Below, piece by piece: positions 7,374 to 26,227 of a stretch of DNA of 29,129 nt. The notes under the pieces were generated by a model. It had not been told where the DNA came from. It made no database searches and was given only the letters and a program-made list of their open reading frames with translations. The stretch lies in contig JAHFGR010000003.1 of NCBI GenBank assembly GCA_023247345.1, positions 1 through 29,129 on the forward strand. The letters run 5' to 3'. Position 1 is the stretch's first letter. Every line of letters starts with the position of its first letter. The translations under genes were made by a program, and so were the position numbers. This stretch comes from Candidatus Micrarchaeota archaeon. Its GTDB lineage: Archaea > Micrarchaeota > Micrarchaeia > Anstonellales > Bilamarchaeaceae.

Positions 7374-8537
7374 ATGCAAGCTAAAAATGGATTTCTCACA
7401 TCTTTATCAATAAACTTTATTCATAACTTCATAGCTTCTGGAGTGGCAGTGCTTTTGCCCCTATATCTACTAGAGAAAAACGTATCGATTGAAAGCATAG
7501 GGTTAATTTTTTCTGTACTCTCAATAATAATGCTGGTCTTCAGATTCATTTTTGCAGTTATCGCAGATTATATAGGAACGCGCTTAATTTTCATTGGAAA
7601 TGCGATTGCACATGTTGTAACTATTGTAACGTATATTCTCTCAATGACCCCGTTGCATTTTGCATTTGGTAAAATATTCGAAGGATTGCGTGCAGCTGCA
7701 TTCTGGTCAGTTAATAGAACGGAGATATATCGTATAAATGCAAAGGAGGCAGAGAAGAACGCATCAATAATGGGAGCTGTCAGATCTATTAGTACAATTT
7801 TTGGCAGCGCAGCAATTGCAATTGCCTTAATTTTCTTTTCAATTCAAAGCAGCTTTTTATTTTTAATCTTAGCCAGCATTGTTCTGTTCTATTACTCTTT
7901 GAATGTAAAAAATGGAAAAGAAAAGAAAAAATTAAATTTATCTGCCTTTATGACTGAGTTAAAGACAAAACGCAGCAAAGAATTTTGGTCCGCAGCTTTA
8001 ATTTTAAGTATGGCTGCCATATACGAAGCCCCTATCCTTGCGATAGTTATCCCATTATACATGGCGGAATCTTTGAAATCTCAGCCATCAATGATCGGCA
8101 TTGGGCTTGCACTTTATTCTGCCTCTTTTTCATTTGCAAGTTATGTCGCTGCAAAATATAATATGCGTATAAAAAGCATTGCATTCGGAGCGATAATTTT
8201 TGGTACGCTTCCAATTTTATTTATTCAGAATATTTCAGAAAATATTTTCTTGTTAATATTATTCTTATCTGGATTAGGTGGCGGGTATGGTTTGATTAAC
8301 TTAATGGAGATAATCATGGCAAGAACTGTTAAAAATAGTGTTACACCTTCTATTGATGTATCTATCTTAATTATGCCCTACAGACTAGTAGAATTCATAA
8401 CGCTAGCTGCAATCGGTTTTGCAATTATCAATCTTGGATTTTATAATGTATTCTTAGTGCTCGCTTTATCATTTGCCGCATATATATTTCTAGCCTGGAA
8501 ATTCCTATCTAGTTTATCCCAAAAGAATTCGCACTAG
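7374..8537 (+). CDS. Major facilitator superfamily transporter
   Basis: About 12 hydrophobic segments; AVIADYIGTRLIF resembles MFS motif A; substrate unknown. Its 3' end overlaps the convergent patatin gene by 24 bp. Confidence 0.88.
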   Translation: MQAKNGFLTSLSINFIHNFIASGVAVLLPLYLLEKNVSIESIGLIFSVLSIIMLVFRFIFAVIADYIGTRLIFIGNAIAHVVTIVTYILSMTPLHFAFGKIFEGLRAAAFWSVNRTEIYRINAKEAEKNASIMGAVRSISTIFGSAAIAIALIFFSIQSSFLFLILASIVLFYYSLNVKNGKEKKKLNLSAFMTELKTKRSKEFWSAALILSMAAIYEAPILAIVIPLYMAESLKSQPSMIGIGLALYSASFSFASYVAAKYNMRIKSIAFGAIIFGTLPILFIQNISENIFLLILFLSGLGGGYGLINLMEIIMARTVKNSVTPSIDVSILIMPYRLVEFITLAAIGFAIINLGFYNVFLVLALSFAAYIFLAWKFLSSLSQKNSH

Positions 8538-10103
8538 TTCCTTTCCCATTTTATAGCCTTCATCTTTTACCTCTTCAGCGCCTTCCATGGAAGTAAGCGC
8601 GATATCGCTTAAACTTCCGTCAGCATTTGGATTTACCAATATCTTATGTCCTTTGCCTCTTAACAAATTTATAGTTTGAATCACTGTTTGGTATGCGTTC
8701 GCTTCATGCCCCATATAAGCCCGCATTGGCGCAGTATTATAAAAAAATCTTTTTCTTTCTTGTCTGAAATATCCTTTCACAGCTCTAAAAAATGCACCTG
8801 TTTTGTTATATAAATTTGTATTTTTACCTAATTTCGCTATCTCTGCCATCAGAATATCGTTAAAAGTAAAATATTTTGGAACTTCTGTTCCAACTGGATT
8901 AAGATTTGCAAGATTTACTGATATTATTATTCCTTGGTCTTTCATTTCTTTTAGTAATAATTCTGCTGTTAGTAACGGAAGGTTTTCCACCATCCCACCA
9001 TCATCCAGCATTGCCTTTTTGAGTGTAATACTATGTTTTTCTACTCCGTTTTCACCTATCTCTAATCTTTCAGCAGTGAATGTATCCAAATTTGGTCTTG
9101 GAATAACTCCTTGCATCGAGCAGGATCCCCACACTGCTTTCCATACTTCTATGTCACTACTAAGTTGAACGTTTCCATTTGTTTTACTCGTTCTTCCTAT
9201 TACTGTTTTTCCAAAATTAACAGGGCTTTGTAGGGTTGTTATAACAAATAAATCCGCTATATCTGAAAATGTTTTATCGCCAAATATCTCTTTCAAATAT
9301 TTCCCAAAACCTCTTCCAATAACTCCGCCACCGAGCGATAGAACAAGAGTAGGCAAAAGTGACCTTATTCCAAATATCTTTCTTAATCTTTCAGTAGAAA
9401 TTCTGTCCTCTGTCGGGCCATCGCGTTCTCCTGTTGCAAGTGACGCAGCAGCAAGCGCTCCGGCTGACGTACCAACTATTAAATCTGGCCATAATTCTGC
9501 TTCTCTTAAAGCTTTTAGAAATCCAATATAAAATATTCCTTTCGCCGATCCGCCTGACAATGCCAATATTATCTTACCAGCTTTCTCTCCATCTTCAGTA
9601 TTCTCTCCGATCCATGCGAATTCAGAAGCATAAGATTGCGCCCTTGTTTTTCCTGCTATGACTTCAGTTAAGTTACTTATCGCTGGCCTTAAGATGCTGC
9701 ACGTATATGACATTGTTCTTTTCATTTCTTTAATATAAATAGTTATTTCTTCCTTTTTTTCACGAAAGACATTCCATTTTGGTTTACCTTTAGATATATC
9801 AGAAATAGCTTCAACATAAATTTCCCTTAATAGTTTGAGGATATTAAGCGCTGGTTCAGTTAATTGTTCGTTCTCTCCGTATATCTCTTTTTTTATAAAA
9901 GGGTGCTTTTTCAAAATCCTCAGTATATTAGTTCTATTGCCGCTGGTTATGGCTTTGGCTAAATCAAGTATATAAACTTCGTCCTGGTATTTTGCAGATA
10001 TCTCGCCTCTAATTTCGTGCATTCTTTGAAAAATTCGTAGCCTTTTGTCTGGATCGATTATCGGCATTCTTCTAATGGGCTGCCTTAAGCTTACCCCGGC
10101 CAT
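8514..10103 (-). CDS. Patatin-like phospholipase with a large N-terminal helical extension
   Basis: LALSGGSAKG oxyanion loop, GTSAG nucleophile elbow, DDGGMVENLP catalytic Asp; about 175 aa precede the patatin domain. Confidence 0.88.
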   Translation of the reverse strand: MAGVSLRQPIRRMPIIDPDKRLRIFQRMHEIRGEISAKYQDEVYILDLAKAITSGNRTNILRILKKHPFIKKEIYGENEQLTEPALNILKLLREIYVEAISDISKGKPKWNVFREKKEEITIYIKEMKRTMSYTCSILRPAISNLTEVIAGKTRAQSYASEFAWIGENTEDGEKAGKIILALSGGSAKGIFYIGFLKALREAELWPDLIVGTSAGALAAASLATGERDGPTEDRISTERLRKIFGIRSLLPTLVLSLGGGVIGRGFGKYLKEIFGDKTFSDIADLFVITTLQSPVNFGKTVIGRTSKTNGNVQLSSDIEVWKAVWGSCSMQGVIPRPNLDTFTAERLEIGENGVEKHSITLKKAMLDDGGMVENLPLLTAELLLKEMKDQGIIISVNLANLNPVGTEVPKYFTFNDILMAEIAKLGKNTNLYNKTGAFFRAVKGYFRQERKRFFYNTAPMRAYMGHEANAYQTVIQTINLLRGKGHKILVNPNADGSLSDIALTSMEGAEEVKDEGYKMGKELVRILLG

Positions 10104-17376: not shown

Positions 17377-18507
17377 ATGAATTTAATTCCGCTTTTTCTA
17401 AAATTCCTAAAACTTGGTTTTACCGGTTGGGGTGGTCCGATTGGTCGAATAGCTTTAATGCATGAGGAACTAGTTGTAAAAGAAAAATGGATAGATGAGA
17501 AAAAATTCGGGAAAGTTCTAGTAGTTTATCAAGCATTGCCCGGTCCAGAGGCAACTGAACTTGCATGCTATTTTGGTTATAAAGAAAGAGGCAGAATTGG
17601 CTCAATAGTTTCTGGTTTGGGATTTATGCTACCTGGGTTTATTCTTATGCTCATTGCATCATATCTATATGTAAATTATGGATTAAAGATTCCTGAAGTG
17701 AATGCTGTTCTATATGGGATAAGACCAGTAGTAGCAGCGCTTATCATTCATGCGATTTACAAGCTAGGCAAAGCGAACATAACCGATATTAAACTAGTTG
17801 CAATTGCAGCAATCTCCCTAGTCATATTTCTGTTTACAAAAATTGATTTTCTTATAATATTGGCCGGAGCAGGGTTTGTTTCATTCTTACTTTATAACGT
17901 GAAAATAAAAAGGCCTAGTGCTAAGTCCATCTCGCCTTTTATTTTACCAATATTACAGTTTTATTCGCAGCTTCAATTGCCACAAATTCCTTTACTTTTC
18001 CTGTTATTTCTTAAAGCGGGTTTGCTGACATTTGGAGGGGCATATTCTGTTGTTGCATTCTTGCAGCAAAGTGCTGTATACGAAAATCATTGGTTAACTA
18101 ATGAGCAGTATTTGGACGGGCTGTCAATTGGCGCAGTTATGCCTGCACCAATGGTAATAATAGGTACATTCGTTGGTTATCTGGCTGGTGGAGTAACCGG
18201 AGCGATAATTGCAACTGTTGGAATATTTCTTCCTGCATTTGCATTTACACTTATGGGTTACGAATACATCGAAAAAGCAGTTGATAATAAGAAATTACAA
18301 TTTTTCTTGTTAGGTCTAACTGCATCGGTTATTGGATTAGTGGCGGCAACATGGCTGCAGCTTTTGCCTATTGCAGTTATAGATATCCCGACAATAGCAT
18401 TAGCATTAATAGCGCTTTATTTAATCATAAAAAAATTCAATTTTATAATAACAATCTTAGGAAGCGGAATAATCGGATTGATATTGAAATTTGTTATTCA
18501 TATCTAA
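17377..18507 (+). CDS. chrA: Chromate ion transporter (CHR family, bidomain)
   Basis: GFTGWGGP, LPGPEATEL, FLPG-like motif, second-half GLLTFGGAY and FLPAF. Confidence 0.92.
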   Translation: MNLIPLFLKFLKLGFTGWGGPIGRIALMHEELVVKEKWIDEKKFGKVLVVYQALPGPEATELACYFGYKERGRIGSIVSGLGFMLPGFILMLIASYLYVNYGLKIPEVNAVLYGIRPVVAALIIHAIYKLGKANITDIKLVAIAAISLVIFLFTKIDFLIILAGAGFVSFLLYNVKIKRPSAKSISPFILPILQFYSQLQLPQIPLLFLLFLKAGLLTFGGAYSVVAFLQQSAVYENHWLTNEQYLDGLSIGAVMPAPMVIIGTFVGYLAGGVTGAIIATVGIFLPAFAFTLMGYEYIEKAVDNKKLQFFLLGLTASVIGLVAATWLQLLPIAVIDIPTIALALIALYLIIKKFNFIITILGSGIIGLILKFVIHI

Positions 18508-18565
18508 GAAATCGAAACCTTAATATAAATTAACTTTGATTGTTCTCTAATTTGGTGATTTCTCA

Positions 18566-19891
18566 ATGGCTTACGAATTTAAACTTCCAGACTTAGGCGA
18601 AGGTATTCATGAAGGGGAGATTAAGAAATGGCTAGTAAAAGAAGGAGATAAAGTCAAATCAGATCAGCCTATTGCCGAGCTCGAGACAGATAAAGCAGTA
18701 GTTGAAATGCCATCTCCGAAAGGCGGCGTTGTGCTTAAATTATTTGGCAAAGAAGGAGAGAAAATAAAAGTAGGTCAAGTTCTTATTGTTATCGGGCAAG
18801 AAGGCGAAAAATATGAACAGAGGCAGGAAGCAATAGGCAGTAAGCAAGAAGCAATAGGTAGGAAGCATGAAGCTCCTCAAGCCTCAAGCCTACCGCCTAA
18901 ACCAGATGGCCCCAAGTCTCAGACTGAAATAACCATCCCTCAAGAAACTTCTACCGGCAGAGCAATGGCAACCCCATTTGTTCGCAAACTGGCGCGTGAA
19001 CTTGGCGTTGATATTGAAAAAATAAAAGGTACAGGTGAGCATGGAAGAATAAGCGAACAAGATATAAGAAATGCATCAAAAGGCGGATATGATTTCATAA
19101 AGCAGGAAGCAGTAGGCAGTAAGCAAGAAGGGCCTACAATCTATGACCTACCGCCTAAACCAGTTCAACGCATCCCAATAATTATCGAAGGTGAAGTTGA
19201 ACGCTTACCATTTCGCGGGGTTCGCAGAACAGTTGCAGAGCATATGGTTACGAGCATGCAAACTGCTATGCATGTAACGCACGTAGATGAAATTGATGTT
19301 AGCGATTTAGTTCGCATACGCGAGCAGGAAAAAGCATACGCTGAGCAAAAAGGTGTTAAACTAACTTATTTGCCATTTATCATCAAGGCAATTGTTGCTG
19401 CATTGCGCCAATTTCCGGTTTTTAACTCTAGCTTGGATGAAGAGAAAAGCGAGATGGTACTTAAGAAATACTATAATATCGGAATAGCAGTTGATACAGA
19501 AGATGGATTAATTGTTCCTGTGCTAAAAAATGCAGACAAAAAAACAATTATTAATCTTGGGAAAGAAATCGCAGAGCTAGCAGAAAAAGCACGCTCGCGA
19601 AAGCTCACGCTTGACGAGTTGCGAGGCGGTACATTTACAATTACCAACATTGGCAGCATAGGTGGAGTATTCGCAACACCTATTATCAATTATCCTGAAG
19701 TCGCGATCCTTGGCATATATCGAATGCAAGACAAAGTCGCAGTTGTAGAAGATAAAGCAGAGATAAGAAAAATGATGAATATTTCTTTGACATTTGATCA
19801 TCGGGTAATTGATGGTGCGCTTGCTGCGAGATTTGCTGTAACAATAAAAAAGCATTTGGAAGATCCTGGATTGCTGCTTGTGGACGAATAA
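18566..19891 (+). CDS. pdhC: Dihydrolipoamide acyltransferase E2
   Basis: One lipoyl domain (ETDKAVVEMPSP), peripheral subunit-binding domain (ATPFVRKLARELGVDI...GTGEHGRI), catalytic DHRVIDG; GGTGA SD. Confidence 0.96.
   Translation: MAYEFKLPDLGEGIHEGEIKKWLVKEGDKVKSDQPIAELETDKAVVEMPSPKGGVVLKLFGKEGEKIKVGQVLIVIGQEGEKYEQRQEAIGSKQEAIGRKHEAPQASSLPPKPDGPKSQTEITIPQETSTGRAMATPFVRKLARELGVDIEKIKGTGEHGRISEQDIRNASKGGYDFIKQEAVGSKQEGPTIYDLPPKPVQRIPIIIEGEVERLPFRGVRRTVAEHMVTSMQTAMHVTHVDEIDVSDLVRIREQEKAYAEQKGVKLTYLPFIIKAIVAALRQFPVFNSSLDEEKSEMVLKKYYNIGIAVDTEDGLIVPVLKNADKKTIINLGKEIAELAEKARSRKLTLDELRGGTFTITNIGSIGGVFATPIINYPEVAILGIYRMQDKVAVVEDKAEIRKMMNISLTFDHRVIDGALAARFAVTIKKHLEDPGLLLVDE
18820..18904. repeat. 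In-frame heptamer repeat element in E2 linker 1
   Basis: GAGGCAG GAAGCAA TAGGCAG TAAGCAA GAAGCAA TAGGTAG GAAGCAT GAAGCTC then GCCTCAA GCCTACC GCCTAAA; encodes RQEAIGSKQEAIGRKHEA...LPPKP. Confidence 0.8.
19099..19163. repeat. In-frame heptamer repeat element in E2 linker 2
   Basis: AAAGCAG GAAGCAG TAGGCAG TAAGCAA then GCCTACA ATCTATG ACCTACC GCCTAAA; shares GCAGGAAGCARTAGGCAGTAAGCAAGAAG and CCTACCGCCTAAACCAG with the linker 1 copy. Confidence 0.8.
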
Positions 19892-19951
19892 TTAGCGTGT
19901 TATGGGAATCTTTTCAATTTGTCAGGCAAACACATATATTTAAAAATACTT

Positions 19952-19966
19952 TAGTAATAATTACTA
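19952..19966. promoter_or_regulatory. Candidate toxin-antitoxin operator palindrome
   Basis: TAGTAAT-A-ATTACTA ends 2 nt before ATG 19969, downstream of TTTAAAAA (19939-19946). Confidence 0.6.
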
Positions 19967-19968
19967 TT

Positions 19969-20226
19969 ATGGGTGTAGCTAAAGTTACTAGAAATTATCA
20001 AGTAACAATTCCTAGAGATGTAAGAATAATGCAAAGTATTCATGTAGGTGACACCATCGTTTTTTCTGTTGAGGGAGAAAGAGTTGAAATTCTAAAATTA
20101 AAGGAAGATATCTTGGAAAAAGCATTTGGGTCATGGAAAGAAATGAAAGAAACTGGTACAGATTATGTTAAGAGAATAAGAACAGAATGGGAGACAAGGG
20201 AAAAGAGAATAAGGCGACAAAAATGA
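19969..20226 (+). CDS. AbrB/MazE/SpoVT-family antitoxin
   Basis: AKVTRNYQVTIPRDVR....I..GD.I.F swapped-hairpin motif; ATG 19969 is preferred over the track's GTG 19897. Confidence 0.9.
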   Translation: MGVAKVTRNYQVTIPRDVRIMQSIHVGDTIVFSVEGERVEILKLKEDILEKAFGSWKEMKETGTDYVKRIRTEWETREKRIRRQK

Positions 20227-20597
20227 GCTTAGTTATAGATTCAGATATCTTTATTGATACATTACGAGGGGAAGAAAATGCAGTAGAGTTTATTAGAGGT
20301 GTAGTCAAAGAAGATGTGTTTTTCTCTGCAATAACCGAAACTGAGCTATTGTCTGGTAAAGAATGTGAAGATGATAAGAAAAAAGAGGGCGTTTTGCACG
20401 TTTTGGCGCTTTTTAATAAGGTTATTGTGGATAATAAAGTGGCTCAAATAGCCGGAGATATTCGAAGAAAATATAATGTTTTAACTCCTGATGCAATAAT
20501 AGCCGCAACAGCTTTTTTAACAAATTCAGTGTTAATAACGAGAAACATTAAAGATTTTGAAAAAATCAAAGGTTTACAAGTTAAAAAACCTTATTGA
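20223..20597 (+). CDS. vapC: PIN-domain VapC toxin
   Basis: LVIDSDIFID, ITETEL, PDAIIAATA, LITRNIKDF acidic tetrad; ATGA overlap with the antitoxin stop. Confidence 0.92.
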   Translation: MSLVIDSDIFIDTLRGEENAVEFIRGVVKEDVFFSAITETELLSGKECEDDKKKEGVLHVLALFNKVIVDNKVAQIAGDIRRKYNVLTPDAIIAATAFLTNSVLITRNIKDFEKIKGLQVKKPY

Positions 20598-20610: not shown

Positions 20611-21999
20611 CTAGTTCTTCAGTATCCTAACAAATCCATGATTTCCGTCAACTTCTATCAAATCGCCAGTTTTAATTAAGTGAGTTGCATTTCTAGTCCC
20701 AACTATGCAAGGAACCCCGAATTCACGAGAAACAACTGCTGCATGGCACAATATGCCGCCTTCGTTTGTTACAATTGCTGCTGCTCGTTTTATCGCAATT
20801 ATAAAGTCCGGCGATGTCATTGAGGTTACAAGAATCTCTCCTTGCTTAATATTTTTGGCATCATGAGCACTCATTGTTACAAATGCCCTTCCTTTTACTC
20901 TGCCTTTATTTGCGATCGAGCCTTCTATTTCTATTATTTCTTTGGTATGCTGTTTTTGGCCAAATATTTCAACTTTCTTTCTTTCAATTTCATCTTCATC
21001 TATTAGAAATTCGAATTTTGCATCGTTACTATTCCATATTACCATGAAGTGCGCCATTCTTTTTTGTATCAGTTTTTTGTCAAATTTATTTTCGAATATT
21101 TCCCTTGGAATTGTATGTTTCATCTCTTTTAGGCTAAATTCATGATATTTTCCTATTGCTTCCAGTAGTCTATCCACATAGTGGAGCATCTTCATTGTAT
21201 ATTCTTTTCTATAATCCTGAAACCATGCAAAGAATTCCATTAGTTTAACTAGATTCCTTTGCTCTTCATTAAATCCCAACTCGTTCATTGCTTTTTCTTT
21301 TTCTAATACTAGTTCTTCATCTTTTTTCTCTATTTCCAGGAGATATTGTTCTGGATCTGGATATTTTTCTCTAATCTTTTTTAATTCCTCTTCAAAAAAT
21401 TCTTTTCCGAGCACTTCAGTAGTGAAATAATTATTATGTAGCCAAGAATAATTTTTAGCATGTGCTTCTAGTTCTTGATCGCTTTTAATTTGCAATAGAT
21501 CTTCGAATTCTCTACGGGAAAATGATTTCCGAACCGGAGTTGTAAGTAGAGAGAAATCTTTTTTATCTTTTGATAAATCTTCGAGAACCCTTTCTCCGTA
21601 GACGCCAACTGGTTCTGTAACACCCAATAAGAACCATCTAATCCATAAATCGTGCAATTCTCTAAATTTTTTTACTAATTCCTGTTCGCTCATGCCCCCG
21701 GAATTGTTTGAATCTTTCATGAATTGAGCTATTTTTCTAGCTTCTGTGTTTATCTCATCTTCAAATTTGCTCCATCCATTCTTTAAAAAATTTTCAACCA
21801 ATACTCTTCCCATATTATAGAAGTCCTCATTCTCGTTGTTCCAAGAGATAAGGTCATTTTTCCATATACAGATGGTTGTTGGCCAGGGTGTGCCGTGATA
21901 TTTTGTAGTAGGCTCTGCCCATGCTTCCATGCACATAAAAATTGGCGTAATTGTTGCATTTCTTTCCCAATGAAACCAAACGTCTTCTTTTGTAGTCAT
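20611..21999 (-). CDS. Protein with a C-terminal PEP-utilising mobile phosphohistidine domain and an uncharacterised helical N-terminal region
   Basis: Reads on the minus strand (CAT 21997-21999, stop CTA 20611-20613) although the track says +. C-terminus G..KG...GEILVTSMTSPD....AIVTNEGGILCHAAVVSREFGVPCIVG...GD.IEVDG..G.V. No ATP-grasp or TIM-barrel domain. The track's GTG 22008 looks like part of the SD (GTGAT). Confidence 0.9.
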   Translation of the reverse strand: MTTKEDVWFHWERNATITPIFMCMEAWAEPTTKYHGTPWPTTICIWKNDLISWNNENEDFYNMGRVLVENFLKNGWSKFEDEINTEARKIAQFMKDSNNSGGMSEQELVKKFRELHDLWIRWFLLGVTEPVGVYGERVLEDLSKDKKDFSLLTTPVRKSFSRREFEDLLQIKSDQELEAHAKNYSWLHNNYFTTEVLGKEFFEEELKKIREKYPDPEQYLLEIEKKDEELVLEKEKAMNELGFNEEQRNLVKLMEFFAWFQDYRKEYTMKMLHYVDRLLEAIGKYHEFSLKEMKHTIPREIFENKFDKKLIQKRMAHFMVIWNSNDAKFEFLIDEDEIERKKVEIFGQKQHTKEIIEIEGSIANKGRVKGRAFVTMSAHDAKNIKQGEILVTSMTSPDFIIAIKRAAAIVTNEGGILCHAAVVSREFGVPCIVGTRNATHLIKTGDLIEVDGNHGFVRILKN

Positions 22000-22035
22000 A
22001 AAAATCACTTTAGTAATTCCAATTAATTCTATATT

Positions 22036-22662
22036 TTATTTCCTGTTCTTTTCAAAATACACCTTTCCCTGTTCTACGTAATCAACGTTATCCCATTTTG
22101 GATCTCTCGGCAAACCGAGTTCTTTGCGAACTTTTTTAATACGTCCAAAATAACGCTTACAATTTTCTTGGGATTTCTCGTATACATACGCATCATGTAC
22201 TCCTTCGTACAAACCACAGTCTAAGACGTCTGCATCTTTAACCAGCTCTACATACGGATTTTTGGAAACCTCATGTTTATCGCTGTGATTATATATAGCT
22301 GTAGTAATGAGTGTGATTTCTCTAGGCGTGAATTTTTTGGTTTGCCGTAATATTCTTTTTGCTATTGGCGCACCTTTGTGTGCGTGGTCAGTAACACGAC
22401 CGGTAGTAAAGACATAAATATCATGCATAGCGCAGATAATAGCGCCAAGCTCTGGATCGAGTCCGCGTTTCTGTGCAAGAATTCGTCCGACCTGAGCTAC
22501 TGCAGAGCTGTGCTTTAACTCAAATGTTTTACTCCATGAACGCTCTTCATCTGGCGGCTTGCTTTTCAAAATTGTCTCTACTACTTTCCGCTCAATAAAT
22601 TCACAACGAGAAATTTTGTCGCCTTTGAAATGCGTATAAATTGGGTTATAGATGTATGACAT
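22036..22662 (-). CDS. HD-superfamily phosphohydrolase
   Basis: LKHS, AMHDI, DHAHKGA, IYNHS, KDADVLD metal ligands; GAGGTGAG SD. Confidence 0.9.
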   Translation of the reverse strand: MSYIYNPIYTHFKGDKISRCEFIERKVVETILKSKPPDEERSWSKTFELKHSSAVAQVGRILAQKRGLDPELGAIICAMHDIYVFTTGRVTDHAHKGAPIAKRILRQTKKFTPREITLITTAIYNHSDKHEVSKNPYVELVKDADVLDCGLYEGVHDAYVYEKSQENCKRYFGRIKKVRKELGLPRDPKWDNVDYVEQGKVYFEKNRK

Positions 22663-22715
22663 AAATTCTACTCACCTCTTGTAATTATATAAGAACATTT
22701 TAAAATATATTTATT

Positions 22716-22739
22716 TACTACTACTATTAGGTAGTAGTA
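22716..22739. promoter_or_regulatory. Candidate operator: perfect 9-bp inverted repeat with 6-bp spacer
   Basis: TACTACTAC-TATTAG-GTAGTAGTA in the 76-bp divergent gap; its last base is the A of the TrmB ATG. Confidence 0.65.
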
Positions 22740-23497
22740 TGAATACTGAAATATTAAGGAAACTTGGTTTGGGCAGCAATGAAATTCGGGTTTATCTTGC
22801 ACTACTAGAGACAGGTCAAACAACTACTGGTCCGCTTGTAAAAAAATCAGATATTCCTTCCTCAAAGATTTATTACACACTTAGTTCGCTTATCGAGAAA
22901 GGAGTGGTGAGTCATATCCTTAAAGGGAAGATAAAATGGTTTCGTGCTAATCGACCAAGTGTATTGAGGCATCTTCTAGATCTTAAAGAGCAAGAACTTG
23001 CTAATGCGAGAGAAGAACTGGAAAAATTTTTGCCAAGCTTAGAATCTGAATTTGCTTCTGAGAAACGAGATTATAATGTCGAGATTCTCGAAGGCTTACG
23101 AGGAATAAAAAGCCTTTATGACCACTCATTTGATATTTGTCAATCAGGTGAAACCATGTATACAATGGGGTATCCTCTGCTCGCTAGCCAACTTTTACAT
23201 GCATATTTTAAGGATTTTCATAAGCGAATGACAAGGCGCGGTCTAAAAGCTAAGATTATCTATGATTATGATACTTGGTTTTCAAAAGAGCGCGAACTAC
23301 GGTCACATGCCGAACAGCGTTATCTACCTAAAGGAGTGCATACTCCAGCATTTGTTCATATTTTTAGAGATTATATAGGCATCATGGTTGTCACTGAGAA
23401 ACAAAAAACCTGCATTGTAATTAAAAACAAGGAAGTTGCGGATAGTTATTTACAGTATTTCAACCTTCTTTGGAAATTAGGCAAAGAACCAAAGTAA
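22739..23497 (+). CDS. TrmB-family transcriptional regulator
   Basis: LRKLGL..NEIRVYLALL, IP.SKIY..L.SL.EKG.V winged HTH, coiled coil, C-terminal effector domain (LEGLRGIK...). Confidence 0.88.
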   Translation: MNTEILRKLGLGSNEIRVYLALLETGQTTTGPLVKKSDIPSSKIYYTLSSLIEKGVVSHILKGKIKWFRANRPSVLRHLLDLKEQELANAREELEKFLPSLESEFASEKRDYNVEILEGLRGIKSLYDHSFDICQSGETMYTMGYPLLASQLLHAYFKDFHKRMTRRGLKAKIIYDYDTWFSKERELRSHAEQRYLPKGVHTPAFVHIFRDYIGIMVVTEKQKTCIVIKNKEVADSYLQYFNLLWKLGKEPK

Positions 23498-23610: not shown

Positions 23611-25041
23611 ATGGTAGTAGGAGAAATAGCAAACGGTTGCCAAGTTGCAATTATAGGCGGTGGGCCAGGTGGCTACGTTGCAGCAATACGTGCAGCGCAG
23701 CTTGGCAAAGACGTAATACTAATTGAAAAAGAGCCAAACGGACTCGGCGGCATTTGCTTACATCACGGATGCATTCCAAGCAAAGCGCTCATTTATGCAG
23801 TAGACCAGTACGAGTCTGCGCTAAATGATTTTCCAAAATTTGGCTTAACATGCGATAAAATAAATTTTGACATTAAAAAACTTCAGGCGTGGAAAGAAGA
23901 AAGCATAAACAAATTAACAAGCGGCATCGCAATGCTAATGAAAAAGTACGAAATAAATGTCATTCAGGGTGAGGCGTTTTTTGAAAACTCCAAGCGCTTG
24001 CATGTTAACACAATTCATGGTCCAACTTATGTTGAATTTGAAAAAGCGATTCTGGCAACTGGCTCAAGTACGCAGATGCTGGAAGGTTTTGAAGTAGATG
24101 GAAAACAGATTATTACTTCGACAGAAGCGCTAAAGTTTGATTATATTCCGAAGAGCATGGTTGTTATTGGCGCAGGGTATATTGCACTGGAATTAGGAAT
24201 GATGTACGCTAAGCTAGGTACAAAAGTAACATTTATTGCACGCAGCGTACTCGCATCGCAATTAGACCGGGATATTGTGAAGCCGCTTTACGATCGATGC
24301 AAACAGCTTGGTGTTGACATCTATGAATATTCAACCCCGGATCGGGTAGTGAAAGACGCAACTAAAGTTACCGTCTTCATCACATCAAAAGAAAAAGGGC
24401 AATTCGCAATCGAATCTGAGTTTGTTATGGTTGCAATAGGCAGAAAACCAAATACTCAAAATCTCGGGTTGGAAAAAACAAAAATTCAGCTCGATGAAAA
24501 AGGATTAGTCAAAGTCGATGAAAAGCGCAGAACTACTGATCCGTTTATCTATGCTATCGGCGATATAACTCCTGGTCCGATGCTCGCGCACAAAGCGTTT
24601 TTGGAAGGCAAGATCGCAGCTGAGGCAATCGCTGGTTTATCAAGCGCATACGAACCGAATTGCGTGCCAGCAGTAATATTCTCTGATCCAGAGATTGCAG
24701 AAGTAGGAATAAGCGAAAAAGACGCATTACAAAAAGGATTGAAAATAAAAGTCGGGAGATTTCCATTCTCAGCGCTTGGTCGCGCGGTAAGTGTTGGGCA
24801 AAGCGAGGGTTTTGTAAAAATAATTGCAGATGACCAATCAAATCTTATTCTTGGGATCCATATAATTGGTCCGCACGCAGGTGATATGATAAGCTCTGCT
24901 GCGCTTGGTATCGAGATGGGTTTCACGCTAGAGGATTTGGCATTAACGATCCATCCGCATCCGACATTCCCGGAAGCATTGGCAGAAGCTGCAGAAGCAA
25001 CATTGGGAAGAGCGATACATATATTTCAAAATAAAGTCTAG
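23611..25041 (+). CDS. lpdA: Dihydrolipoamide dehydrogenase E3
   Basis: GGGPGGY FAD site, GGICLHHGCIPSK disulfide, GAGYIALE, AIGDI, HPHPT..E; AGGTGA SD. Confidence 0.97.
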   Translation: MVVGEIANGCQVAIIGGGPGGYVAAIRAAQLGKDVILIEKEPNGLGGICLHHGCIPSKALIYAVDQYESALNDFPKFGLTCDKINFDIKKLQAWKEESINKLTSGIAMLMKKYEINVIQGEAFFENSKRLHVNTIHGPTYVEFEKAILATGSSTQMLEGFEVDGKQIITSTEALKFDYIPKSMVVIGAGYIALELGMMYAKLGTKVTFIARSVLASQLDRDIVKPLYDRCKQLGVDIYEYSTPDRVVKDATKVTVFITSKEKGQFAIESEFVMVAIGRKPNTQNLGLEKTKIQLDEKGLVKVDEKRRTTDPFIYAIGDITPGPMLAHKAFLEGKIAAEAIAGLSSAYEPNCVPAVIFSDPEIAEVGISEKDALQKGLKIKVGRFPFSALGRAVSVGQSEGFVKIIADDQSNLILGIHIIGPHAGDMISSAALGIEMGFTLEDLALTIHPHPTFPEALAEAAEATLGRAIHIFQNKV

Positions 25042-25132: not shown

Positions 25133-26227
25133 ATGCAATTTGTTGATAATCGAGGGGCATGGCAAGGAAGAAAACCCAGAGTAACTGAAAGATTATTTAT
25201 AAGATTTTTGGAAACTACTTCTTCTGAAGAAGATTATAAACACAAACTCCTGCGTGCAATTTTCAAAGGAGTAAATGCAAGAGTTGATCATCTCAACGGG
25301 CGAGCGCATTTTACGACTTCAAGTTTTTCAATTTTTGCAAGAAGAGAATTTATAGGGCTTAGTGAAAAGCGTCCATTACTTCCGTATACACATATGCATT
25401 GTCGGGAAGTAGGCGATCTTGCGTATATACTTGCAAGAGAGCTTCAAAAAGCAGGCTTACTTGGCGGTTTGCCCGAGGATATCACCGTACTTATGCAATT
25501 ATCTGGATACGCACACGACATAGGAAAAGTTTTCATACCTAGAGGTCTGTTAGGCAAAGAACTTTGGGGCGCTTTGCAAAATTTTGAAAGAGATTGTATT
25601 AGGCATGGTCATTTGATAGCAGGAGTGACATTATTAGAAAGCCTACAAATAGAGCGCAGAGGTGATCTCGTAAGTCCGCTTATTCTGGCCAATGTAGGTT
25701 GTCATCATATAAGCTATACTGGTCTTGATTATCCGAGAAGTCCAAGTTATGGAAAACTACCTGGCATGGACGGAAAGCTTATTGTTGGGAGTGAATTGCC
25801 AATTCACCAGCGCATCTTAAAGCTTTGTGATCTCATAAGCGCTAGATTAAAACGCTACTATCGCGTTCCCAACGGTGAAGCAGATAGTGTTGATACTTTA
25901 GAAAAGTCAATTGCATTTGCATTAACAGTTGTTGATACTGAAGTAGATCCTTTACTCTTTCCGTATTTACTTAAAGGCATTTATGATATAAGCTTAGAGA
26001 ATGCAAAAGAGCTTGTTGAGCGTGTAACAACGCGTGTAATATTAAATAAAGAGAGAATGCAGACACTAGATGATTTGCTTGCTTTGGTTATGAGTGAACC
26101 TATGTTTGATAGATTTATCAAAAGAGAGAATAGACTTGGGTTAAATCTATATGGCAGTGATTCAAATTCCAATAATGGAGCAGCAGAGATTTCAACAAAT
26201 TTTGGCGGGGTTCTAGCTCTTCCGTGA
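25133..26227 (+). CDS. HD-GYP-like metal-dependent phosphohydrolase
   Basis: HCREVG, YAHDIGKVFIP, HGHLIAG, CHH....G.DYP, LPIHQRILKLCD; TTTATATA at 25101-25108. Confidence 0.8.
   Translation: MQFVDNRGAWQGRKPRVTERLFIRFLETTSSEEDYKHKLLRAIFKGVNARVDHLNGRAHFTTSSFSIFARREFIGLSEKRPLLPYTHMHCREVGDLAYILARELQKAGLLGGLPEDITVLMQLSGYAHDIGKVFIPRGLLGKELWGALQNFERDCIRHGHLIAGVTLLESLQIERRGDLVSPLILANVGCHHISYTGLDYPRSPSYGKLPGMDGKLIVGSELPIHQRILKLCDLISARLKRYYRVPNGEADSVDTLEKSIAFALTVVDTEVDPLLFPYLLKGIYDISLENAKELVERVTTRVILNKERMQTLDDLLALVMSEPMFDRFIKRENRLGLNLYGSDSNSNNGAAEISTNFGGVLALP

Follow-up and report, generated by a model that had tools for sequence, protein, structure and literature searches.

A conserved TrmB–HD–H cassette of Micrarchaeota with the predicted acceptor subunit of a split, rifampin phosphotransferase-like dikinase

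We analysed a 29,129-nucleotide stretch of DNA from a Candidatus Micrarchaeota archaeon (hereafter the window, which is contig C49 of a 1.29-Mb assembly that is 75% complete) and studied a cassette of three genes within it. Two of them are co-oriented on the minus strand and encode an HD-superfamily hydrolase (HD) and, downstream of it, a protein of 462 amino acids (aa) with a C-terminal phosphohistidine or swivel domain (H); the third gene is divergent and encodes a TrmB-family regulator. The coordinates of the open reading frames (ORFs) agree with the arrangement described in a first-pass annotation of this DNA, in which HD and the His-domain gene are co-oriented and 36 base pairs (bp) apart and TrmB is divergent. 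The intergenic region between trmB and HD measures 76 bp, and an upstream GTG at 22008 provides an alternative start for the H gene that would give a protein of 465 aa. The features considered below are as follows:

20611–21999 (stop codon included), minus strand: H-type subunit gene, an ORF for 462 aa with its ATG at 21999
20950–21999, minus strand: N-domain of H, residues 1–350, mostly helical and rifampin-binding-domain-like by AlphaFold2 model and fold alignment
21202–21219, minus strand: putative catalytic-helix motif Q261-D262-Y263-R264-K265-E266, by profile alignment to the Listeria rifampin phosphotransferase RPH-Lm
20614–20937, minus strand: swivel phosphohistidine domain of H, residues 355–462 (PF00391), with the His419 codon at 20743–20745
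22036–22662, minus strand: HD-superfamily hydrolase gene, an ORF for 208 aa and the first gene of the operon
22698–22716, minus strand: TATA-like, AT-rich element AAATAAATATATTTTAAAA, directly following the predicted operator in the HD direction
22717–22738, no strand assigned: palindromic predicted operator ACTACTAC-N6-GTAGTAGT, conserved and abutting the trmB start codon
22739–23497, plus strand: TrmB-family regulator gene, an ORF for 252 aa, divergent from the HD–H operon

The conservation of the cassette was surveyed in 301 genomes of the phylum, 47 of which hold a member of the H family. Strong orthologs were defined by an E-value of at most 1e-113, which gave 17 loci, 16 of them counted as separate. 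HD lies directly upstream of H in all 17, and TrmB was seen in 15 of the 16 separate loci. The exception, L028 (contig C42 of genome G255), is a degraded copy in which a TAG stop interrupts an H gene spread over several frames, HD is fragmented and the flank ends early. Seven metagenomic homolog contexts repeat the picture, with HD immediately upstream in each and a divergent TrmB in six; the genes flanking the cassette otherwise vary between loci. HD and H are close neighbours throughout, the HD stop and the H start overlapping by four nucleotides (nt) in 10 of 24 distinct loci. The TrmB–HD–H arrangement is far beyond chance, and the linkage of HD and TrmB, on whose recurrence the first-pass annotation had made its proposal depend, was found again wherever a strong Micrarchaeota ortholog has flanks that can be read. 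Of the three proteins, TrmB shows the highest conservation (61–72% identity, 73% mean column identity), with mean identities to the window proteins of 65% for TrmB, 52% for HD and 49% for H; the H orthologs are 42–75% identical to that of the window. The relatives are Candidatus Micrarchaeota of groundwater origin, and the DNA of the window itself is present in four groundwater metagenome runs from one study; the datasets listed as containing it include no RNA dataset.

The domain content of H is simple. Pfam reports PEP-utilizers (PF00391) alone, at residues 387–458 (E 2.7e-25), and neither PPDK_N, the ATP-grasp domain, nor PEP-utilizers_C; the motif GGILCHAA occupies residues 414–421 and contains His419. 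The protein thus has the intact swivel domain initially ascribed to it, and neither an ATP-grasp domain nor the barrel that binds phosphoenolpyruvate (PEP). NCBIfam models for PEP synthase, rifampin phosphotransferase (RPH), PigC and “PRK08296” reach only the C-terminal 100–240 residues and stay far under their cut-offs (118 bits against 598 for the PEP synthase models; the RPH models cover the last 100 residues only). A model of the whole protein was built with AlphaFold2 from an alignment containing 14 homologs (predicted local distance difference test, pLDDT, 84; predicted template modelling score, pTM, 0.82). When it was compared with the Protein Data Bank (PDB) by Foldseek, the top six matches were all Listeria RPH, with E-values from 1e-12 to 1e-10 (best 1.3e-12). 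VIA-align placed model residues 11–461 on RPH residues 339–867, the rifampin-binding and swivel domains (Z 21.5, 394 residues aligned), and the N-domain alone on RPH 324–753 (Z 12.0–12.1). The RPH equivalent of the model start is residue about 326–339, past the ATP-grasp domain. The N-region, for which a cryptic ATP-grasp fold had been named as the outcome to fear, has a rifampin-binding-domain fold instead. This kinship is visible by fold or full-length profile only: the N-domain lies below HMMER detection in PDB and NCBIfam except for its last third, and its profile drew only chance-level matches from the PDB sequences (nucleobindin, TraM).

To map individual residues, a profile of 24 orthologs was aligned with RPH-Lm from residue 610 to the end, an alignment of sequences only. 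In it, Q261-D262-Y263-R264-K265 falls on R666-E667-Y668-P669-K670 of RPH and His419 falls on His825. In RPH, phosphotransfer depends on Arg666, Glu667 and Lys670, which keep the phosphate and the catalytic His in place (PMC4844700). D262, R264, K265 and E266 are invariant among the 24 orthologs, as is the stretch T411-N-E-G-G-I-L-C-H419, which fits the pattern T/S-x-x-G-G-x-x-x-H, and the N-domain holds 57 invariant positions, seven of them Trp. Model and alignment together point to an acceptor domain that keeps most of a phosphotransfer site, and the suggestion that the helical region binds an acceptor is borne out as far as the modelled fold and the conserved RPH catalytic helix can support it. 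Because the N-region combines the rifampin-binding-domain fold with the acid and the lysine of the helix, we take the protein to be the H-type subunit of a split small-molecule dikinase of the HpeH/CreH/PpsA-alpha kind. In the HpeHI, CreHI and PpsAB enzymes, the H subunit carries the acceptor and swivel domains and the ATP-grasp domain resides on a second protein (PMC12167813), whose gene we call the I gene below.

Earlier described as an orphan, the 462-aa protein belongs to a large family. A word-indexed search had returned only 15 close relatives; an exhaustive search with the N-domain profile yielded 2401 cluster representatives, of which 1143 reach E ≤ 1e-10, and the majority are 450–520 aa long with GGxT[CS]HAA at the end. 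The possibility that the gene is a truncated ppsA is ruled out by this full-length family of conserved size and by an intact 815-aa PpsA encoded on another contig. The family also includes fused and tandem forms (P0144, P0113, P0155, P0032 and P0033), among them a 2648-aa protein that joins a single PPDK_N to six swivel domains, one of 589 aa in which an HTH_3 domain precedes the H module at the N-terminus, and proteins with two, three or four H modules in tandem. An HD–H fusion was considered for P0155 (682 aa, with an HD-like tail) and is not established, as its 20.1 bits lie below the Pfam cut-off and hhalign to the window HD family gives a probability of 0.6%. In a 1.4-Mb Micrarchaeota genome (G126, identical to G305), which holds 19 swivel domains and one PPDK_N, six H-type paralogs stand in tandem on contig C7 (L086, 3506–14527), interrupted by an HTH_10 protein and a 286-aa protein; no ATP-grasp, HD or TrmB gene was found within this array.

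If H is the acceptor half of a dikinase, its histidine would have to be charged from elsewhere. In the source genome the only PPDK_N lies inside PpsA, and a closed 1.57-Mb Micrarchaeota chromosome with the cassette has likewise one PPDK_N (PpsA) and two swivel domains. The same holds for the cassette-bearing genomes of the largest genus, where PPDK_N occurs in PpsA only, and for six further relatives with H-type genes, in which PpsA is the sole PPDK_N protein above the Pfam cut-off. Altogether, a Pfam search for PPDK_N in the source genome and eight relatives returned PpsA-sized proteins only, plus a sub-threshold fragment in G215, from which the divergent 491-aa candidate discussed below was traced. 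A genome search for stand-alone PPDK_N proteins had been proposed as a check, and it yielded none above the Pfam cut-off in either the source genome or the closed relative. The swivel domain of H is 55% identical to that of the genome's own PpsA. Since the cassette has no I gene and the ATP-grasp domain of PpsA is the sole such domain in the closed relative, PpsA is the most likely charger of H, a rank to which the resemblance of the two swivel domains contributes as well.

Cassettes of the same kind occur in bacteria of the candidate phyla radiation (CPR). On a Gracilibacteria contig (L097, 6104–10014), TrmB is followed by HD, H and a stand-alone PPDK_N gene (318 aa), and a Patescibacteria genome (L087, 7001–9907) has HD, H and PPDK_N (305 aa); the latter cassette sits among the cell-wall genes MraY, Mur ligase, FtsW and MurJ. 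Magasanikbacteria carry TrmB, then HD and H, and another contig has TrmB, HD and H plus three more H paralogs. Seen from the versions with a third gene, a PPDK_N after H, the window holds the TrmB–HD–H unit minus that gene. The proposal of a donor acting in trans, part of the original interpretation, accordingly stands in part: it fits the published two-component dikinases (PMC12167813) and the CPR cassettes with an ATP-grasp gene after H, and the stand-alone PPDK_N it led one to expect did not turn up.

The HD protein is a regular member of its superfamily (PF01966, E 1.1e-10, 42 bits against a cut-off of 22). In the alignment, H51, H80, H93, H126, D143, D145 and D148 are invariant and D81 is nearly so, leaving the metal ligands intact. 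Its model (pLDDT 88) has fold Z-scores of 14.4 to 2pq7 (20% identity) and 11–12 to YpgQ and YqeK; none of the close relatives, of which the best reaches Z 14.4, has a characterised substrate, and Foldseek returned nothing at E ≤ 0.001 and generic HD hydrolases only, so that no fold subfamily can be named. More than 650 relatives came up in a profile search. The window HD is 62–77% identical to CPR HDs (the Patescibacteria group, Gracilibacteria and Magasanikbacteria; L087, L089, L091 and L097), and most other Micrarchaeota cassette HDs are only 43–50% identical to it. In a FastTree phylogeny of 127 HD sequences, eight archaeal leaves of the window type fall inside a 43-leaf clade (support 1.0) with named CPR sequences. 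These sequences suggest that the HD gene was exchanged in situ by a transfer between domains, the direction of which is tentative given the midpoint rooting of the tree and the small number of named leaves.

CPR H proteins beside HD are 27–34% identical to the window H and CPR TrmB proteins 21–25% to the window TrmB, and within Micrarchaeota HD and H types are uncoupled as well, with HDs 81–83% identical to that of the window in L008 and L022 whereas the H proteins there are 46–47% identical. In CPR bacteria one HD can precede several H paralogs. Because HD is conserved at 62–77% across the domains whereas H is at 27–34%, because their types are uncoupled and because one HD may serve several H proteins, HD likely acts on something common. 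Its target would probably be shared by many H modules, for example the phosphorylated or pyrophosphorylated enzyme, or else a phospho-product or phospho-ester of a common class; an HD that simply reverses one specific product, as the first-pass annotation had allowed, fits these identities less well and is probably not what the gene is for. A complex prediction for HD and H (alignments A3 and A4) scored 0.00 in both runs and gives no verdict either way.

The third protein matches TrmB in Pfam (PF01978, E 4.2e-15, 55.8 bits against a cut-off of 25.6), and by profile its residues 7–135 match the TrmBL2 and TrmB structures over winged helix and coiled-coil. Its C-terminal 120 residues match no Pfam family, including the sugar-binding effector domain PF11495, to whose clusters a language-model comparison gives a weak lead (score 0.80). 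The palindrome at the trmB start is present in all 21 distinct TrmB–HD intergenic regions, with minor variation of the arms in a few, and an AATATAT core lies at a constant offset of about four bases from it in nearly all loci; the commonest length of the TrmB–HD spacer is 57 nt. Searching the 1.29-Mb assembly for ACTACT-N9-11-AGTAGT returned one exact match, namely this site, and none for the reversed control pattern. With up to two mismatches, the window contains four operator-like sites against 0.64 expected, the exact one being that at 22717–22738 only.

By analogy with archaeal promoter architecture, the TATA-like element would be the promoter element of the operon. The proposal is that TrmB binds the palindrome and, since the predicted operator lies between the trmB start and the TATA-like element of the operon, would control both trmB and the operon; from archaeal promoter geometry, a site between the shared TATA region and the trmB start would give autoregulation. 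TrmB appears to be a local regulator with one operator, judged from the occurrence of the site. The palindrome appears to differ from the Thermococcales glycolytic motif (TGM). Of the claim that the module is inducible, the part that holds is the conserved predicted operator, and nothing beyond it speaks for induction.

Taken together, we regard it as probable that the locus is a TrmB-controlled two-gene operon encoding the H subunit of a split, RPH-type small-molecule dikinase that is charged in trans, with PpsA the likeliest charger, and an HD accessory protein. In the proposed mechanism, His419 of the C-terminal swivel domain would be phosphorylated in trans at an ATP-grasp site, after which the swivel domain would dock on the N-domain of its own protein. 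There, D262, R264 and K265 of the catalytic helix would position the phosphoryl group, which would pass to a hydroxyl of a small molecule held in a Trp-rich pocket. The analysis shows the gene order, the folds, the conservation of catalytic residues and operator, and the distribution of ATP-grasp genes; the donor, the substrate, the role of HD and the sign of the regulation are what we infer.

Several observations weigh against this reading. The cassette has no ATP-grasp partner in cis, and the source genome no stand-alone PPDK_N above the Pfam cut-off. The cassette-bearing genome G288 (86% complete, six contigs) shows no PPDK_N. PpsA occurs in 63 of the 65 genomes of the family, with or without the cassette, and its presence is thus uninformative. 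In one CPR genome an I gene coexists with an 830-aa PPDK_N protein, which leads us to reject, at least for that genome, the simple rule that an I gene occurs only where PpsA is absent. With 462 aa, the window H is 150–180 residues shorter than its counterparts of HpeHI, CreHI and PpsAB (about 600–640 aa). The position of RPH Arg666 is taken by Gln261, the invariant Arg264 standing three residues on and one turn away in the sequence alignment. Finally, a co-translated phosphatase and kinase would form a futile cycle if HD merely reversed the reaction.

A bolder version of the preferred reading is that the Micrarchaeota PEP synthase doubles as an ATP loader for a separate and separately regulated acceptor enzyme, and that HD is an obligatory third component acting on the (pyro)phosphohistidine intermediate and not on the product. 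We consider this doubtful in its full form. If true, it would describe a split “water dikinase” whose three chemical steps are divided among as many proteins, with central metabolism lending one of these.

Alternatively, H might need no ATP at all. As a transphosphorylase, its His419 would take the phosphate from a phospho-metabolite bound to the N-domain (or from a PEP-like donor) and hand it in ping-pong fashion to a second acceptor, with HD hydrolysing one phospho-compound. A precedent is HpeH, which alone transfers phosphate from 4-phosphoacetophenone to acetovanillone (PMC12167813), although this exchange is a side reaction of a dikinase. The scarcity of ATP-grasp domains speaks for such an enzyme, from the lack of a stand-alone one in the source genome and the closed relative to the cassette of G288 without PPDK_N and the 19 swivel domains of G126 with a single PPDK_N. 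The CPR cassettes, however, carry an ATP-grasp gene right after H, and the neighbourhood points to no donor metabolite. On balance we find ATP-independent transfer unlikely.

A trans donor other than PpsA could be a divergent, stand-alone PPDK_N-like protein, for which the source assembly (G000) offers one candidate of 491 aa, encoded on contig C102 at 8092–9564 (L072, 1192–2664) between a carbamoyltransferase-like gene and carB. It has an N-terminal GKLGGK motif, its language-model features group with PPDK_N clusters (score 0.90–0.92; PF01326 in 79 of 100 matches), and a 32%-identical ortholog in the closed relative has a weak PF01326 match (E 0.083). The protein has no Pfam match of its own, however, its profile was found in only seven of 17 cassette genomes and also in cassette-free ones, and its gene is not syntenic with the cassette, all of which makes this donor improbable. 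Its C-terminal part is swivel-like, and the ortholog with 32% identity does not keep the His found there.

A further reading turns on the substrate, and would make the cassette a xenobiotic or antibiotic inactivation module, a resistance or detoxification device in which TrmB senses a toxic compound coming in and H phosphorylates it. That the nearest of the solved structures is a kinase conferring antibiotic resistance, that CPR bacteria and DPANN archaea exchange the cassette, that paralog numbers differ widely among genomes and that the regulator is dedicated to a single operator would all suit this role. The rifampin-contacting residues could not be mapped, as the profile alignment reaches no more than the final third of the N-domain, while an HD phosphatase would undo the inactivation. 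A housekeeping ligand fits better with a TrmB conserved at 61–72% and a cassette that is vertically stable within one family, and we judge an inactivation module to be improbable too. That H is a non-catalytic remnant, either with a swivel domain serving as a structural or regulatory appendage, as at the C-terminus of Geobacillus pyruvate kinase, or as a decaying ppsA fragment, is highly improbable and already largely refuted by conservation, for although pyruvate kinase C-terminal domains match residues 354–462 strongly (Z 17.6), His419, the T-x-x-G-G-x-x-x-H motif and the catalytic-helix residues do not vary in the orthologs, the N-domain has no PPDK_N similarity, an intact PpsA is encoded separately, and length is conserved over about 2400 representatives.

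The surroundings of the cassette in the window are mixed. A VapBC-like pair (an AbrB/MazE-type antitoxin and a PIN-domain toxin, 19897–20597) lies between the E2 gene (lipoamide acyltransferase, within 17377–19891) and the cassette, convergent to the H gene and 13 bp away from it. Together, this toxin–antitoxin pair and the cassette part E2 from the E3 gene (dihydrolipoamide dehydrogenase, 23611–25041). The neighbourhood is partly syntenic, for in the relative L004 (4697–7387) E2 and a chromate-transporter gene likewise occur within a few kb of the cassette. Just downstream of E3, at 25133–26227, the window encodes an unrelated second HD-domain protein of 364 aa, matching PF01966 and, below threshold, HD_5.

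DPANN archaea and CPR bacteria are both large assemblages of ultra-small microbes that depend on hosts and have a largely uncharted metabolism, and to our knowledge split dikinases of the rifampin-kinase type have so far been characterised only in the aromatic catabolism of free-living bacteria. Here, the split-dikinase chemistry would come in a compact, regulated cassette that both groups share. Full-text searches of the literature found no published TrmB–HD–H cassette and no DPANN H-type protein, and CPR “rph-like” genes are mentioned only as resistance-gene counts. The cassette offers a defined predicted operator for a dedicated regulator, and “complete” versions with the ATP-grasp gene that can be compared with “incomplete” ones. 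Its HD partner is so conserved across domains that a shared intermediate is the probable target. The substrate could reveal what DPANN and CPR organisms trap or modify from their hosts, and the identity of the donor would tell if an enzyme of central metabolism is able to load a foreign carrier domain.

Among known systems, PpsA and pyruvate phosphate dikinase share with the window protein the GGxxxHAA motif and the related swivel domain; they differ from it in possessing PPDK_N and the PEP/pyruvate TIM barrel and in the central position of a His domain that is C-terminal in H, and PpsA is encoded separately. RPH-Lm (PDB 5FBS/5FBT/5FBU/5HV1) is the only solved structure that matches the whole window protein, with E667 corresponding to D262, K670 to K265 and His825 to His419 and with a C-terminal swivel domain in both. 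Identity between the two is 18–19%, RPH has a fused N-terminal ATP-grasp domain (1–314) that H lacks, and the window N-domain is about 80 residues shorter. HD resembles the small stand-alone HD phosphohydrolases (2pq7, YpgQ, YqeK and SP1746) in its fold, its H...HD...H...D ligands and its length of ~200 aa, and is set apart by the tie of its family to H-type swivel proteins in CPR and DPANN. The regulator shares with TrmBL2 (PDB 5BQT) and TrmB (3QPH) the N-terminal winged helix and coiled-coil and a palindrome next to a TATA-like element, differing from them in its C-terminal part, the 120 residues outside any Pfam family.

The closest likeness is to HpeHI of Rhodococcus, CreHI of Corynebacterium and the phenylphosphate synthase PpsAB of Thauera, in which an acceptor domain is likewise followed by a C-terminal swivel domain with T/S-x-x-G-G-x-x-x-H and the ATP-grasp domain is placed on a separate polypeptide, as it is in those CPR cassettes that have the I gene directly downstream. 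Unlike these enzymes, the window family is spread over DPANN archaea and CPR bacteria, and the window H always follows an HD hydrolase under a TrmB regulator, lacks an I gene in cis as well as any recognisable one elsewhere in the genome, and lies near no aromatic-catabolism genes. The cassette is a shorter, archaeal and CPR, HD-coupled and TrmB-regulated variant of the known two-component dikinase H enzyme, here without the ATP-binding partner.

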